Source: an uncultured virus (IMG/VR IMGVR_UViG_3300030060_001311) (Duplodnaviria; Heunggongvirae; Uroviricota; Caudoviricetes). Taken from it: a DNA stretch of 64,000 nt. The stretch is taken from positions 1-64,000 of the IMG/VR virus record IMGVR_UViG_3300030060_001311; one strand, 5' to 3'. A model generated the notes under the pieces. It ran no database searches. It was not told where the DNA came from and saw only the letters and a list, made by a program, of their open reading frames with translations. The position numbers and the translations under genes are program-made. Of the stretch, positions 17,958 to 49,407 are shown one piece after another; position 1 is the stretch's first letter, and the number at the start of each line of letters is the position of its first letter.

Positions 17958-19076
17958 TTACCTAGCTGTTGCTGGGATTCCTGTTGATGTCACGAATGGA
18001 TTTTCCGCAAAAGCCATATAGATGTATGGGTTGGTGCTTCCATTTTGACTAGCCTGTGTTCCTCTCATTTTAAAACCATTACTTAAAAAATCTAATTGAC
18101 CACTAACTGTATCTGTTGATTCTAGCTCACTGTTATTTATAAACAATCTTCTACTTGCATCTTGTCTATCAGCAAATCCACCGCCTGCTGATGCTCTCCT
18201 ATTATCAAATAAATTCCAATTTGAACTTCCATTGGTTCTTTTAATTAAAAGAAATGCAGGGGCGAAACCTAGATATACAAAAGTTCCATTCGCATTGCCA
18301 TTGCCAGTATAGGTGCCAAACTTTGAAAATCCTTGCACATCTGTAAAAGCTAAAGCTATGTATTCAGTACTTGCAGTGTTTGTTGAAATATACCCAGCAT
18401 CACCACCTATGTAGTAAACTGAAGATGTTGGAGTAGTGCTACCAAAATCAGGAGAAGTAACAGCCGCAGGTGTAGTTAATGCAATACGCTTTGCAGAGCC
18501 TAGACGTTGATGATAAACATACCAACTAGCTACACTAGATGTTCCATCTCTATCTTTAGAAATAATCATTTTGGGAACAGCACCCAAGCCATGCCCTACA
18601 TTTTTTCCTGATGTACTTCCATCTCCTGTATAAAAAACAAGTGATACTCCTGCTGTCGTATTGGCTTGAACTGTTGTTGCTATATTTCCATCATTGTTTG
18701 TGCTTGTAGTTCCTCCACCAACTTTCCACTGCCAAGCAACAAACTCTGAACCATTTTCATTAAATTTATCATCATTAGTTCCACCTGCATTAACTGTAAA
18801 ACCATCTGTTAAAAAAGCAGTTAATTGACCATATGTAGTTCCTGTTCCTTTTCCATTTGCATTATTAGGTTGTAAATTTTCTTCTGTTCCAGTTCCCATG
18901 GTTGAGTTGTATAACTCAAAATCTGTTCCATTAGTGGTTCTATTTTTTGCAATAACAATATCAGGTTTTAAAGCACTATTACCATCATTGGTTATGCTTC
19001 TTGGTGCAGAGGTATTACCAGTCCAAAGAGCAATCTGAAAATGTGCAGATGGGTCGTCTATTGTTGTATAAGCCAT
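17958..19076 (-). CDS. Tail fibre/receptor-binding protein
   Basis: Repeats of YTGxG, GFAPAFLLIK, DFLSNGFK, YIYMAFAE; start revised to MAYTTIDDPS overlapping upstream TAA. Confidence 0.7.
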   Translation of the reverse strand: MAYTTIDDPSAHFQIALWTGNTSAPRSITNDGNSALKPDIVIAKNRTTNGTDFELYNSTMGTGTEENLQPNNANGKGTGTTYGQLTAFLTDGFTVNAGGTNDDKFNENGSEFVAWQWKVGGGTTSTNNDGNIATTVQANTTAGVSLVFYTGDGSTSGKNVGHGLGAVPKMIISKDRDGTSSVASWYVYHQRLGSAKRIALTTPAAVTSPDFGSTTPTSSVYYIGGDAGYISTNTASTEYIALAFTDVQGFSKFGTYTGNGNANGTFVYLGFAPAFLLIKRTNGSSNWNLFDNRRASAGGGFADRQDASRRLFINNSELESTDTVSGQLDFLSNGFKMRGTQASQNGSTNPYIYMAFAENPFVTSTGIPATAR

Positions 19077-20491
19077 TATCCGTACTCCGCTAAATTTTTT
19101 GAACACAAAGCATAAAAACCAGACGGTACAGCATACTCAAAGTTGCCATATCCGTTAGCATCGCTGTTGCCACTTGATATAGAAATTAAAGTAAACCCAC
19201 CAAAGTTACATTTCCAAGTAATATTACTATAACCAGTTACACCCATTGTTATTACATCAGTCCAAGCATCACCAAGACTAGAACTTGTGTTCCATGTAGC
19301 ACCATTCGCAGGTGTGCCACTATTATCTGATGACATCCAAGTGCCGTTTACAGAAAAATTTATTTTTCTATCATCCATGTTCAAACCAACACCAATAATA
19401 TCACTGGCACTATATGAAGCACCATAAAAATCACCAGTCCTATTTAGCAAAGCTCCATCTGAGCCTCTTAAACCAACTGATCTATTTTGATTGCTCCCTG
19501 CATAACCTAAATAATAACCAGTATGATTTTGTGGTATATAAGCATCTTCTACATCAACTATACCAATAAAAGATGTAGTTGAATCGCAGGTAAATTCTGC
19601 ATACCACTTACCTTTTGATACTGCTATAGATGAAACTGCTGTTTGATAATTACTAGATATATAAAATTGTGCATTACCATTAGCTACATTTGTGCCTGAT
19701 GCTTTAGGGTGTAGTTGATTAAAGGTTGCAAAGTTGTTAGTGCAGGTATCGGTTGCTTGATCTGCCGCTGCTATATTGTTTTCAGTAAAATCGGTGCCAC
19801 CACTTACATCATTACCTAAATTAGAAGAGTCTTCAAAATCTAAATAAAATTTATTAGTGCCTGAAGGTTTGCTTGCTACATCAATAGGCTTCCATATACC
19901 ACTATTGCTATCAAACTCGCCAAACTCGGTAGGTGCTGATGCAGTGCCATCTTGATAACAGATTTCACACATGTAACCATTGTAAGGCTGTCCATTATCA
20001 ACAGAGTTATAACCTATAACTTGTTTTTCAAAATTAATGCCTAAATTATCATTTTGACTTGGATTATTTGTGGTGCTAAAAGAAGTTTCTTGCACTCCAT
20101 TTACATACAATTTAAACCTATCATTAGCTGTGCTTTGTGTTGTATCAAAGGCTATAACAAAGTGATACCAAGCGTTAGTATCACGAAAAACTCTGTTTGT
20201 ATTTCGCCAAGTAGAAGTTCCACCACCTATTCTTAAAGTATCATCTGTTTGAAACCTAGCAAAGGTTCTGCCAGTGTCATTATCAGTATTACCAAAAGTG
20301 AAAAGATATTGTGCTGTAGCATTTTCAGTTTTTTTAGTCCATAAACTAATAGTTCCTTTAGTTCTACTTCCAGCACTACTAACATCTCTTGTCAAATATT
20401 CTGTTAAACCACCTTCAAATTTTACAGAATTAGCCACATCATATCCAGTTGAGACACTTCCTCGATTAGCTGTTCTTTGTAAAGTTTCCAT
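19076..20491 (-). CDS. Tail fibre protein with LamG/ConA-like and SPRY-like domains
   Basis: TISLW, WYHFV, LYVNG; GKWYAEF, IIGVGL, NFGG, PSGFYALC. Confidence 0.7.
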   Translation of the reverse strand: METLQRTANRGSVSTGYDVANSVKFEGGLTEYLTRDVSSAGSRTKGTISLWTKKTENATAQYLFTFGNTDNDTGRTFARFQTDDTLRIGGGTSTWRNTNRVFRDTNAWYHFVIAFDTTQSTANDRFKLYVNGVQETSFSTTNNPSQNDNLGINFEKQVIGYNSVDNGQPYNGYMCEICYQDGTASAPTEFGEFDSNSGIWKPIDVASKPSGTNKFYLDFEDSSNLGNDVSGGTDFTENNIAAADQATDTCTNNFATFNQLHPKASGTNVANGNAQFYISSNYQTAVSSIAVSKGKWYAEFTCDSTTSFIGIVDVEDAYIPQNHTGYYLGYAGSNQNRSVGLRGSDGALLNRTGDFYGASYSASDIIGVGLNMDDRKINFSVNGTWMSSDNSGTPANGATWNTSSSLGDAWTDVITMGVTGYSNITWKCNFGGFTLISISSGNSDANGYGNFEYAVPSGFYALCSKNLAEYG

Positions 20492-36592: not shown

Positions 36593-36973
36593 TTATTTTT
36601 CTTGCGGCATAGTTACTTTTCTATAATATACAACCACATCTTTAAGTTCCGTTATATAACGTTTTATTTCTTGCATATTATAAGCCATAACTTCGTAATC
36701 AGGAATTGTCATAGCCAAGAAGACTAGTTCACCCTCTTGTTCTTCTATCCTTGCTAATTGGTCTTCCCAGTTATCAGGAGTTATTGCAATCCACTGTAAT
36801 TCTTTTAAATCTATTTCTCGCGGCATAATAGGTTGTACTATTTGCCGTTCCATAGGTTTTGCAGTTATTTGTATCGGATTAGTTGGTAGTAGGCTGCAAC
36901 TGGAGCCCATCATCAAGACTGTCAACAGTGCCGCTGACTTTCTCGATATCTTCCATGATATGTTTTGTACCAT
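36593..36973 (-). CDS. Outer-membrane spanin-like lipoprotein (start uncertain)
   Basis: Hydrophobic stretch plus Cys (LLTVLMMGSSC); overlaps 3' end of i-spanin-like gene. Confidence 0.55.
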   Translation of the reverse strand: MVQNISWKISRKSAALLTVLMMGSSCSLLPTNPIQITAKPMERQIVQPIMPREIDLKELQWIAITPDNWEDQLARIEEQEGELVFLAMTIPDYEVMAYNMQEIKRYITELKDVVVYYRKVTMPQEK

Positions 36974-37274
36974 TATTTATCTTCCTTTCCATTTCTACTG
37001 GATCGTTTAATATTTTAGAAGCTAATTCATAGTTTTGTATAAACTGCGTGTAACGATTTAGTTCTCTTTGTGCTTTTTGACTTTTTACACTTAAGTCTTG
37101 TAACTGTTGAGTTTGTAATTCGAAGTCTGCTTTCATTGATTGAATCGCTTCTTCTTGTGTTGCGACTGCACCTTTTAGTGCGGCGTTGTTAGTTACTAAT
37201 ATTTGATTTTGAGAATAAAAGTAATACGTTGCTAAACTTAATATAAGTATTACACCAATTAATATTTTAGACAT
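36879..37274 (-). CDS. Inner-membrane spanin-like protein
   Basis: N-terminal TM helix plus long coiled coil. Confidence 0.55.
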   Translation of the reverse strand: MSKILIGVILILSLATYYFYSQNQILVTNNAALKGAVATQEEAIQSMKADFELQTQQLQDLSVKSQKAQRELNRYTQFIQNYELASKILNDPVEMERKINNGTKHIMEDIEKVSGTVDSLDDGLQLQPTTN

Positions 37275-39185: not shown

Positions 39186-39220
39186 TATTATTGCTCAGAT
39201 ACAAGCGAAAGTAAAGCACT
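39186..39220 (-). promoter_or_regulatory. Early-type sigma70-like promoter (GTGCTTTACT box)
   Basis: AGTGCTTTACT-N17-AATAAT; one of ~12 copies. Confidence 0.7.
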
Positions 39221-42158: not shown

Positions 42159-42308
42159 ATCTTTCTCCTTTCTTAGTTAATCGCTAAAAAGTTATTTTTT
42201 AACTATATATAGTATAGCTAGGATTTAGCGGAAATAAAGCAACGTACGACGCTATTACTAAAACGACTAAACCGAACAAAAAGAATAATAACATATTGTC
42301 TGGGTCTC

Positions 42309-44143: not shown

Positions 44144-44532
44144 TAGTGCACCTCCTTTTCATCTGGTATTGGTATAAACTTCATATAAGGTTCTTCGACA
44201 TGATCTTCAGGCATCCACTCGATAGTTTCTATATAACTATCTAAAGTACCATCATAATCAAAACTAATAGTCTCACCATCTTCATCATAACCAACAACAA
44301 TGGCTCGACCTGCTAATGGCTGATGATACTCTGATAATTTAAAATATCGCATATCGTTTTTAAGTAATCCTTCATCGTCAACAATGACCATCGTATTATC
44401 AGTTAATGTAACAATATCAATAGGTCCATCAAGTTGCATAAAAAACTTAGCATCTTTAAGAGTAGAATTATCACCTAATCCTACTCTTGTAACACTTTTC
44501 TCGAACGGGTCGATAAGTAGTCCGTGTATCAT
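44143..44532 (-). CDS. DUF3846-like protein
   Basis: LIDP, VDDEGL, PLAG.AIVVG.D.DGE. Confidence 0.6.
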   Translation of the reverse strand: MIHGLLIDPFEKSVTRVGLGDNSTLKDAKFFMQLDGPIDIVTLTDNTMVIVDDEGLLKNDMRYFKLSEYHQPLAGRAIVVGYDEDGETISFDYDGTLDSYIETIEWMPEDHVEEPYMKFIPIPDEKEVH

Positions 44533-44861
44533 TGTGCGTACACATCCACGTCAGCTCGGAAATCTGTATTTCTAATTTCCGTTGAGACAATTTCTTCGAT
44601 CTGTTCTTCAGTCCACATAGTACTTTCTATTTTATCGATACGAGCAGTTAACTCTGATAGTAAGTTTAGTACATGCTGCTCAGCTCCTTTTTCTAAATCA
44701 GCAGGATCGATTATTCGAGGTTGTAAGCTATCTAAGACGTTAGCAATCTCGTGTAATGATCTTATCAAATCTGAGTTGAAGTCGTTTGCATAAGACTGTT
44801 CTAAAAGACTGACGTTAGTTTTAAGGTCAGCCACCTGTTGTTGGATTTTTTCCATATCCAT
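44529..44861 (-). CDS. Early hypothetical coiled-coil protein
   Basis: AGAAAGGAGAAA RBS; own promoter. Confidence 0.55.
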   Translation of the reverse strand: MDMEKIQQQVADLKTNVSLLEQSYANDFNSDLIRSLHEIANVLDSLQPRIIDPADLEKGAEQHVLNLLSELTARIDKIESTMWTEEQIEEIVSTEIRNTDFRADVDVYAQ

Positions 44862-44965
44862 ATCTTTCTCCTTTCTAGTTAATGTTATTAAACCTATTTA
44901 ATAACTAATACCATTATGCCTAAGACTACCGCGAAGTAAAGCAGTAGTAGAGGGCAAGATTAGGG

Positions 44966-45157
44966 TTGGAATCAAGTAAGTCACGGTCGTCTCTCGACTG
45001 GTATATTTTTAAATTAATACACAGCCTGATTTGATAGGTCCTGTGCAACCATTGTGGTGGTTGCTTTTACAGTCCACACTACAAGTCATGTGTAAACCTT
45101 TTCAAACACAAAATACAACTCCTCCACACAGGAGTAAATATTTCTTTCTGATTCCAA
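44966..45157 (-). ncRNA. Candidate structured ncRNA (~190 nt, multi-hairpin, two possible pseudoknots)
   Basis: 10-bp closing stem and six internal hairpins in an intergenic gap; G-U pairs favour minus strand. Confidence 0.6.
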
Positions 45158-45166
45158 AATTAAACT

Positions 45167-45505
45167 TTATACTTGAAAATGTTTTATATCTTTGTCTTTT
45201 TTCCATAATCCATCTTCTAATTTACCTGTTCGTTGAGATATCTCATCGTAAGCAGCTTTCATGCAATCCTCAAGCGTTAAACCTTTTTGTTCAGCTAAAA
45301 CGATCAAACATACAACACAATCTCCTATGCCGTCTATTAATCCTTGTTTATCACCGTAAGCAAGTGCTCGAGCTGTTTCACCAACTTCTTCTACAAGTTT
45401 CAACATCTGTTTTTCAGGCTGTATATCTTTTCCGTAGATTAATCCACGTACTTCCGCCCACTCAACGATATCATCAACTACTTTATAATAATCATTCCGA
45501 TTCAT
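45167..45505 (-). CDS. mazG: MazG-like NTP pyrophosphohydrolase
   Basis: KL.EEVGE...DGIGD; AYDEI..RTG. Confidence 0.8.
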   Translation of the reverse strand: MNRNDYYKVVDDIVEWAEVRGLIYGKDIQPEKQMLKLVEEVGETARALAYGDKQGLIDGIGDCVVCLIVLAEQKGLTLEDCMKAAYDEISQRTGKLEDGLWKKDKDIKHFQV

Positions 45506-46173: not shown

Positions 46174-46207
46174 TTATTTCTCCTTTCTTATTAATAAACT
46201 GTTAAGG

Positions 46208-46473
46208 TGTGGTGACGAGAGGAACTCGGTTTCCGCATATACCTCCGTTCATCCTAACCGACTCTAAAGTACTGGCTTTCATAAGGATCGGGACATCACC
46301 ACATTGAAGGTCTAGTAGTTTTGAGTCACTTCTCGGGATAACCTTCTCGCACCCGATGGCTGACTTTTGTGCCAGAGAGATGAGCGGTCTAACTAAAAAA
46401 CCCCGCTCGGAATCATTATTTAATGGAGTAACTATATGACTCTCTCTTTCTGGGCTTATCAAACTTGTTCTAG
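46208..46473 (-). ncRNA. Candidate structured RNA (~270 nt, two multibranch domains) directly behind a promoter
   Basis: Nested stems 46208-17/46294-303, 46251-55/46284-88, 46324-28/46361-65, 46333-37/46352-56, 46372-76/46449-53, 46382-87/46403-08. Confidence 0.5.
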
Positions 46474-46486
46474 TAAACATACTTAT

Positions 46487-46521
46487 ATTATAAAGTACGA
46501 AAATTAGCAAAGTAAAGCACT
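46487..46521 (-). promoter_or_regulatory. Early-type promoter
   Basis: AGTGCTTTACT-N18-TATAAT. Confidence 0.75.
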
Positions 46522-46522
46522 A

Positions 46523-49373: not shown

Positions 49374-49407
49374 ATTATAGGTACGAAAACTACGAAAGTA
49401 AAGCACT
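49374..49407 (-). promoter_or_regulatory. Early-type promoter
   Basis: AGTGCTTTACT-N17-TATAAT. Confidence 0.8.

Follow-up and report, generated by a model that had tools for sequence, protein, structure and literature searches.

What kind of object is the block of about 190 nt that stands between a MazG-type pyrophosphohydrolase gene and a small gene of no assigned family in a marine viral genome: a gene for an RNA, the folded end of a message, or a piece of mobile DNA? A preliminary description of the locus, which had drawn six hairpins and two candidate pseudoknots on the minus strand, took it for a compact structured non-coding RNA, possibly new, and saw in its size and phage context a resemblance to the manA class of marine phage RNAs. 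To our knowledge, almost nothing is known about the non-coding RNAs of phages akin to those of SAR11, which are among the most abundant marine viruses. The comparisons reported below indicate that the element probably belongs to a new structured RNA family that is rare and cassette-like. Its nature as a presence/absence cassette was missed by the preliminary description and changes what kind of thing the element is.

Genomic setting

The window, that is, the whole stretch of 64,000 nt analyzed here, makes up the first 64 kb of a viral record that is 67,621 bp long and rated complete. Its minus strand carries nearly every gene, its G+C content is about 36%, and Pfam searches identify DNA polymerase A, a UvrD-type helicase, an AEP primase, a terminase, a DUF932 protein, and the MazG-type pyrophosphohydrolase. 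The DNA polymerase shares 53.5% identity with that of “phage 023Pt_psg01” and 48% with those of Pelagibacter phages HTVC023P and HTVC027P, and the public runs containing the stretch are labelled marine or seawater metagenomes. The best explanation is that the carrier phages are marine and distantly related to the HTVC023P-type pelagiphages, which are described in PMC9599517. The element is housed in a 305-nt spacer on the minus strand with the MazG gene upstream and an ORF of 110 aa downstream (Table 1). In Pfam searches of 40 window ORFs and PHROGs searches of 15, neither the neighborhood of the element nor the genome-specific segments yielded a transposase, HNH, RT, or RNA-binding family.

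Table 1. Features of the element and its surroundings in the window
Feature	Position	Strand	Basis or remark
Structured element, 192 nt	44966..45157	-	End-to-end match to covariance model R1
P1 5′ arm UUGGAAUCAG	45148..45157	-	Partner of 44966-44975; 70/70 cells paired; 3 pairs with two-sided changes
P1 3′ arm UUGAUUCCAA	44966..44975	-	Outer edge is the boundary of the indel versus relatives
P2 hairpin	45110..45144	-	Outer GAAAUAU/GUAUUUU, inner ACUCCU/AGGAGU, loop GUGUGG (45124-45129)
Linker UUUGA	45102..45106	-	Complement of UCAAA in the 45025-45038 loop
P3 hairpin UUACAC/GUGUGG, 10-nt loop	45074..45095	-	6 pairs, 95.2% paired
P4	45041..45072	-	Outer CUGU/ACAG, inner GCAACCA/UGGUUGC, loop CCACAA (45052-45057)
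CCU/AGG 3-bp stem, loop AUCAAAUC	45025..45038	-	Unchanged in 5/7 variants
Variable 3′ region	44976..45022	-	Hairpins GUGUAU/AUAUAC and GUCG/CGAC in the window copy
3′ trailer CCCUAA	44960..44965	-	ACCYWA in other copies; accompanies the element at both sites
Leader AGUUUAAUU between MazG stop and P1	45158..45166	-	Belongs to the inserted segment at site 1 (junction alignments vs element-less alleles)
MazG-type nucleotide pyrophosphohydrolase, upstream gene	45167..45505	-	Pfam PF03819, E 2.4e-07
Downstream gene, 110 aa, no family	44529..44861	-	ORF and Pfam/PHROGs searches
Conserved promoter and 5′-UTR block of next gene	44862..44959	-	88-94% identity, 20 viral contigs
Promoter word copies	39187-39218, 44913-44943, 46487-46519, 49374-49405	-	Word search of window

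Homologues and known families

Homologous loci were collected through relatives of the MazG protein (54 viral loci) and of the downstream ORF (8 loci), and in a blastn search of the spacer against these the ~195-nt element matched a single contig (L022/L057, 78%). Pattern scans of IMG/VR with conserved words found L066, L096, and L099. Apart from the window's own record, six such scans returned four contigs only, three of these scans, targeted at other parts of the element, giving the same four again, and 12 of the 14 IMG/VR matches to a 16-mer pattern were chance. A scan of metagenome contigs gave nine matches, eight of them real and one (L090) due to chance; these contigs supplied a twin of the window copy (L083), a near-twin (L089), and a fourth type present identically in L084, L086, L087, and L091. 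The known family consists of seven distinct sequences of about 176-192 nt with pairwise identities from 64% to 98%. Among the 185,579 species representatives of cellular genomes, none of 42 pattern matches is the element (best E to the covariance model R1 0.77, 12 bits), and blastn of the 305-nt spacer against GenBank phages gave no match. The window copy itself matches R1 from model position 1 to 187 of 187 in cmsearch (223.8 bits, E 1.7e-51).

The Rfam comparison proposed in the preliminary description gave zero matches at the gathering thresholds over the whole 64-kb window. Even at E ≤ 10, positions 44700-45400 show only four chance-level matches on the plus strand (snoRNA, frnS, lncRNA; E 0.6-4.2) and none on the strand of the element, so that the supposed manA-class resemblance finds no support. 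Six homologous loci (L084, L085, L088, L089, L096, L099) likewise gave no relevant match at E ≤ 10 or E ≤ 1, and ARAGORN reports no tRNA or tmRNA in the window or in L085, L094, L095, L096, and L099. The broader claim of a compact structured non-coding RNA, possibly new, fares well by comparison: the stems covary, G-U pairs favor the sense strand, two different sites both have the element in sense where a transcription unit ends, and it falls in no Rfam family.

Covariation and secondary structure

The seven sequences were fitted to R1 (alignment A6), and the model tested consists of P1, the outer and inner stems of P2, P3, the outer and inner stems of P4, the 3-bp stem, and two loop contacts, 53 pairs altogether. 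Of its 369 cells, 96.5% are paired, versus 36-46% with the partners slid by one to three columns, and 14 pairs change on both sides, a number that 0 of 500 shuffles reach; the earlier drawing as a whole has 91.4% of cells paired. The double changes are distributed over P1 (three), P2 (four), the outer (one) and inner (five) stems of P4, and the helix made by the linker (one). A MAFFT-based alignment of five sequences gives the same picture, which matters because the seven-sequence alignment is biased to its own fitted model. The variants number only seven and fall into three clades, several of the “double changes” being single events inherited by two or three sequences. P4 offers the clearest case, with GCAACCA/UGGUUGC in the window and GUUGUU/AACAAC in L022 around an unchanged CCACAA loop. 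Among the core columns, 35 of 86 paired positions vary compared with 18 of 71 unpaired ones (Fisher p 0.06); at a p of only 0.06, such higher variation in paired columns would be the pattern of an RNA whose loops are important. Together, these comparisons make it highly likely that an RNA structure is under selection here.

All stems listed in the preliminary description can be read in the minus strand where it had placed them, and they differ in how far the variants bear them out. The closing stem of 10 bp, P1, is sustained throughout (Table 1). The ACUCCU/AGGAGU hairpin, now lengthened by its outer extension to the 13 pairs of P2, has 93.4% of its cells paired and four pairs changed on both sides; its inner part is degenerate in two of the seven variants (L022 and L084), and the UGUGG of its loop does not vary in any of them. 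GCAACCA/UGGUUGC stands firmly as the inner stem of P4, with five pairs changed on both sides and a CCACAA loop that is invariant in all seven. The stem drawn as GGUUUACAC/GUGUGGACU holds for its inner six base pairs, which form P3; of the pairs drawn further out, U62-A85 is formed in only 2/7 variants, and G61-C86, although formed in 6/7, gives way to C86-G117, an outer pair of P4 that is formed in 7/7 (GC in four variants and CG in three). P3 has no double change, and its closing pair is broken in two variants. The CCU/AGG stem, which closes the AUCAAAUC loop, has one pair broken and a loop 2 nt shorter in L096 and L099, and the outer ACAG/CUGU stem drawn around it is paired in only 3-4 of the seven. 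Across the seven variants, neither P3, the CCU/AGG stem, nor the UGUGG:CCACA contact covaries.

The 3′ part of the element is far less constant, with 32 of 38 alignment columns variable in 44976-45022 and both of its hairpins lineage-specific. GUAU/AUAC is real in the window and its near-twin L089 and is confined to these two, lying within a 14-nt indel present in them only, while GUCG/CGAC occurs in four of the seven variants and is missing from the others. The two proposed pseudoknots stand on different footings. UGUGG and CCACA are complementary in 7/7 variants, which is compatible with a contact, but both loops are invariant and therefore offer no covariation. UUUGA:UCAAA is exact in five variants and kept through G-U pairs in the other two, L096 and L099, in which the loop is altered; in L099 a U-to-G change stands opposite an A-to-U change, the one double change in a helix of five pairs with 97% of its cells paired, although the minimum free energy (MFE) structure draws a nested helix here instead. 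Three ACAC-type and three GUGU-type words in the central region permit alternative pairings and leave the central fold ambiguous.

Strand and RNA character

On the minus strand, the 192 nt fold with an MFE of −57 kcal/mol, compared with −40.3 ± 3.9 for 200 dinucleotide shuffles (z −4.24, 0/200 as good). This is clearly better than the shuffles against which the preliminary description had asked the fold to be judged. The opposite strand reaches −53.5 (z −4.79); both strands fold far better than shuffles, and energy alone therefore cannot choose between them. The sense MFE lies below the antisense MFE in six of seven variants, by 3.5 to 12 kcal/mol, with similar z-scores. The base pairs themselves are more telling: 35 of the 369 cells are G-U on the sense strand and would appear as A-C mismatches on the other; among them are invariant pairs at the P1 and P2 ends and two neighboring pairs in P3. 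Variants differ by 1-nt indels at three places and by the 14-nt indel, which excludes a shared reading frame. Judged from the alignment, compensatory changes combined with strand-specific G-U pairs would place the element among structured non-coding RNAs by the general criterion for that class.

Presence and absence at site 1

The position behind MazG, hereafter site 1, is usually empty. Of 20 viral contigs with conserved site-1 flanks, 19 are without the element, and in those the MazG stop codon runs directly into the conserved promoter block. Carriers and non-carriers can be very close relatives: over the 300 nt preceding the element, L022 shares 97.9% identity with L020 and L021, both without it, and L084 shares 96.8% with L006, another contig lacking the element. 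Two complete relatives that match the window at 79-88% identity over long collinear blocks leave window positions 44963-45167 and 44960-45188, respectively, uncovered. A search with R1 of 58 related viral records located a single copy in each of G000, G001, G004, G005, and G007; the remaining 53, including 19 with a completeness of 90% or more, gave nothing better than E 0.5 (~10 bits).

Compared with L005, which is the nearest empty allele, the additional DNA comprises a 9-nt leader, the element, and a 6-nt trailer. At the six types of junction read, there is no flanking direct repeat or target-site duplication and no shared target word. The junctions are not simple, as carrier alleles also differ in the last MazG codons. 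The MazG C-terminus has at least three tail alleles, of the types ...KKQEDL*, ...KKDEN*, and ...KKDEDLKHRQV* (45167-45200; L005, L006, L021, L022), which share one switch point, the word GGAAAAAA. Recombination mobilizing the cassette apparently begins within these last codons. We consider it likely that the element is a cassette that has been gained, lost, and transferred.

A second site and transfer between sites

In G001, G004, G005, and the metagenome contig L085, the element occupies a different position, site 2, behind an unrelated small gene and facing a convergent gene of 136-139 aa; in L099, also at site 2, it starts 4 nt after the stop codon. At both sites its orientation is that of the upstream gene. 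The structural genes of G001 share 65-78% nucleotide identity with those of the window, and relative to them the G001 element lies on the opposite strand, so orientation follows the local transcription unit and not the genome. The convergent neighbor was found only in three of 43 records searched, all three of them carriers, and there is consequently no empty site 2 for comparison.

Sequence relationships cut across the two sites. The window copy, at site 1, is 85.5% identical to L066 at site 2 versus 70.6% to L022 at site 1. A metatranscriptome contig of 216 nt from run X15 covers 44966-45158 with two differences in 193 nt and no gap, and includes the 14-nt block that L066 lacks; it continues 21 nt past the element, and 20 of these 21 positions equal the upstream flank of site 2. 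The cross-site identities and the X15 junction require at least one transfer between sites, one of which looks recent.

Other small blocks were noticed around these loci. Downstream of the element at site 2 (L066:314-385; L099, minus strand), a 6-bp hairpin, AUGCCA/UGGCAU, comes first, followed by a 9-bp GC-rich hairpin, UAGCCCAAG/CUUGGGCUA, with a T-run, likely a terminator between the convergent genes. Directly upstream of the element at site 2 lies module A, a block of ~125 nt closed by GACUCUCU/AGAGAGUC (L085:770-904, minus strand, equal to L066:1-132). Module A, absent in L099 and without an Rfam match, also has its end represented in the RNA contig from X15, and it could be another structured cassette. 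Module B, a block of ~62 nt closed by GGGUUUUG/CAAAACCC and followed by GCC, occurs in L096 (95-155) and L009 (996-1057, equal to G006:6069-6130). Its two copies occupy different sites and share 97% identity, both differences between them preserve predicted pairs, the L009 copy is an insertion at the point matching window positions 46202-46206, and the 58 related records contain two full copies. Elsewhere, window segments 36593-37274 and 17958-19106, encoding two Rz-like spanin genes and a DUF7483 protein, share ~75% nucleotide identity with the carrier G001 and have no blastn match in the two complete relatives without the element; on these segment comparisons, carriage of the element may track host-interaction modules.

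Transcription context and RNA data

The word TGCTTTACTT-N14-18-ATAAT occurs four times on the minus strand of the window, compared with 0.01 expected, and the 9-mer GCTTTACTT occurs exactly nine times, on the minus strand only. The repeated word probably represents a promoter family of the phage's own that marks its transcription units. One copy (46487-46519) lies upstream of the MazG gene block and another (44913-44943) just downstream of the element; with promoters on either side, the element is the tail of one transcription unit and not the leader of the next. The ~100 nt before the 110-aa gene (44862-44962, minus strand) are 88-94% identical over 20 contigs, at least as conserved as the flanking proteins (72-88% and 75-87%); they include the promoter word and two hairpins, one of 7 bp and one of 9 bp, the latter immediately ahead of the ribosome-binding site, and their last 46 nt recur with 81% identity ahead of another gene (42159-42205). 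Another spacer, 46174-46522 (minus strand, 349 nt), begins with the promoter word and is 86-87% identical to L009; it is overlapped by a 102-aa ORF with a TTG start, whose counterpart in the relative carries an indel. Considered as a further RNA, this spacer shows no unusual structure (z −0.17) and has no Rfam match.

The inner stem of P2 together with the following UGUAUUUUGU was flagged as terminator-like in the window and in L066, an assignment that concerns only ~35 of the 192 nt and keeps a cis-acting role at the 3′ end alive. Coverage by metatranscriptomes, which the preliminary description had suggested as a check, is partial. Presence in RNA comes from the one assembled X15 contig (depth 6.5), which spans the element and gives neither ends nor strand, from a library that may contain DNA; runs X17, X18, and X19 have no cover over the element. 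Contigs from X17 and X18 join across the position with the short MazG-tail allele, come therefore from cassette-less relatives, and are silent on expression. No antisense match to the two big loops was found elsewhere in the window with up to three or up to two mismatches, respectively.

Proposed function and alternative explanations

The reading that we prefer, and to which we give an even chance, is a new, rare, horizontally exchanged structured RNA in the 3′ tail of an operon, stable as an RNA and binding a partner through its invariant loops. The RNA would be made on the gene-sense strand at the end of the upstream operon, following MazG in the window and an unrelated small gene in another phage lineage. 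The 10-bp helix P1 would isolate the domain, within which stand the hairpin with the UGUGG loop, a central junction with two hairpins, one of them bearing the CCACAA loop, and the variable 3′ region. The invariant single-stranded loops are presumably the working parts: UGUGG and CCACA probably pair with each other and so make the fold more compact, and the remaining conserved loops are probably binding sites for a factor of the host or the phage. We picture a discrete, stable, accessory non-coding RNA, moron-like in character, that would benefit the phage in particular hosts and would be gained, lost, and exchanged between phages as a unit.

The same position, always directly behind a stop codon and in sense, would also suit a cis-acting 3′-end element of the upstream mRNA, that is, a terminator or a block to 3′-to-5′ exonucleases that stabilizes the MazG operon message and has no role in trans. 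Folded intergenic repeats in bacteria are known to stabilize message 3′ ends, P2 is terminator-like in two copies, and the cassette-less relatives have no hairpin between MazG and the next promoter; moreover, an efficient terminator at the U-run of P2 would cut transcription short of most of the element, which counts against a stable RNA. A stabilizer, however, needs only a stable stem, and here loops of 10, 6, and 8 nt are invariant in 5-7 of the seven variants and it is the stems that change; two variants have a degenerate inner P2 stem, and site 2 already has, beyond the element, a long GC-rich hairpin of its own with a T-run. We regard this reading as unlikely, though worth keeping in view. 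That the block is selfish DNA of the hairpin kind, an insertion element (MITE-like or palindromic) or the relic of one, with the closing stem as terminal inverted repeats and the folding as a by-product, strikes us as improbable. Like a MITE, it is present or absent at the same site in carriers and non-carriers whose flanks are up to 97.9% identical. In favor of this reading are also its two unrelated sites and its 10-bp inverted termini; both strands fold well, and module B, a second small stem-closed block, behaves likewise. A MITE would be expected in several copies and in either orientation with a target-site duplication, but each of the five carrier records holds one copy, always in sense to transcription at both sites, and the six junction types show neither duplication nor common target word. 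The 40 window ORFs encode no transposition enzyme of the kinds searched with Pfam, and the G-U cells favor one strand. Three of the ten terminal pairs change in step at both ends, which fits base-pairing better than protein recognition, as protein-bound transposon ends need not do so.

Rather more remote is a processing signal that separates the operon message from its tail, either a new self-cleaving ribozyme or a tRNA-like helix with RCC cut by RNase P or Z. In all seven variants and at both sites P1 is followed by A/C-C-C, the X15 contig ends 2 nt after P1, and invariant unpaired nucleotides surround a multi-helix junction. Against this, no ribozyme or tRNA-like family matches at E ≤ 10, ARAGORN finds nothing, and the end of a contig is not the end of an RNA, the 5′ side of the same contig running 21 nt past P1; we think it very unlikely. 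A riboswitch or 5′ leader for the downstream gene, or a known family such as manA, was suggested by the resemblance drawn in the preliminary description and by the intergenic, multi-hairpin, phage-borne, and marine nature of the element. The element and the downstream gene have the conserved promoter between them, relatives express the conserved leader of that gene without the element, Rfam offers no match, and at site 2 the next gene is convergent, leaving nothing downstream to regulate; the promoter and the convergent gene rule out a role of the riboswitch type for practical purposes. A wider and decidedly speculative proposal, doubtful in our estimate, is that marine phages trade a class of stem-closed RNA cassettes, including modules A and B, between operon 3′ tails. 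The closing helix with R-C-C, found in the element and in module B, would then be a tRNA-like processing handle releasing a stable RNA, and the invariant loops would be decoys or sponges for a host factor, for example a defense nuclease or an RNA-binding protein. Decoys of this kind would account for a carriage that follows host-interaction modules (spanins, tail protein) and not the phylogeny of the phages.

Under the preferred reading of a stable, exchanged RNA, the locus is a clean case in which selection keeps an RNA fold while the cassette that carries it comes and goes between near-identical genomes and unrelated sites. Such a pattern suggests an accessory function, for example host takeover, anti-defense, or message stability, and natural pairs of phages with and without the cassette exist. 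The case also cautions that intergenic indels in phage genomes can be RNA genes and need not be junk or transposon scars. The rarity of the family (seven variants, five of 58 related records) limits the weight of the finding.

Comparison with known systems

The manA motif lies in the 5′ leader of the gene that it regulates. It was rejected as an identity for the element, which does not match its Rfam model and has no 5′-leader position at either site, a promoter intervening at site 1 and the next gene being convergent at site 2. Marine phages and metagenomes have furnished orphan structured RNA motifs such as manA and wcaG (Weinberg et al. 2010, PMC2864571), and candidate structured RNAs from IMG/VR are given in the available text of PMC10690425 with lengths of 29-151 nt, shorter than the element. 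As those accounts present them, such RNAs are like the element in being phage-borne, intergenic, multi-helix, found by covariation in marine metagenomes, and without an assigned function. The element is unlike them, as far as the same accounts go, in standing behind a gene and not in a 5′ leader, in being a presence/absence cassette, and in matching no Rfam model. Four words of the element had no match in six of the supplement files of PMC10690425.

The literature searched contained no published description of the element. Repeats of the ERIC and Correia type are present in many copies per genome, usually with target duplications. The element is unlike them in being single-copy, without detectable duplication, and in combining invariant loops with covarying stems. 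A review of small mobile repeats that lie between genes and fold once transcribed, among them ERIC, Correia/NEMIS, RUP, and BOX, is PMC2229807. What the element has in common with repeats of this kind is the form of a short non-coding block with inverted ends inserted between genes, absence from the same site in close relatives, and transcription within neighboring messages. In T4-type phages, promoter-early stem-loop cassettes border insertions, deletions, and replacements between close relatives, as the available text of PMC2839356 describes. The element is similar to these mobile regulatory cassettes (PMC2839356) in abutting one of four repeated promoter copies and differs from them, within what that text covers, in not being the promoter block itself and in having no such promoter adjoining it at site 2.

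The preferred reading, a stable RNA in an operon 3′ tail, invites a last comparison. Morons are accessory units placed between conserved genes, and stable RNAs can be cut from the 3′ tail of an operon. Unlike phage morons and small RNAs derived from 3′-UTRs, the element yielded neither a promoter nor a terminator belonging to it, and its processing is hypothetical; like both, it is an inserted accessory unit at the 3′ tail of an operon.
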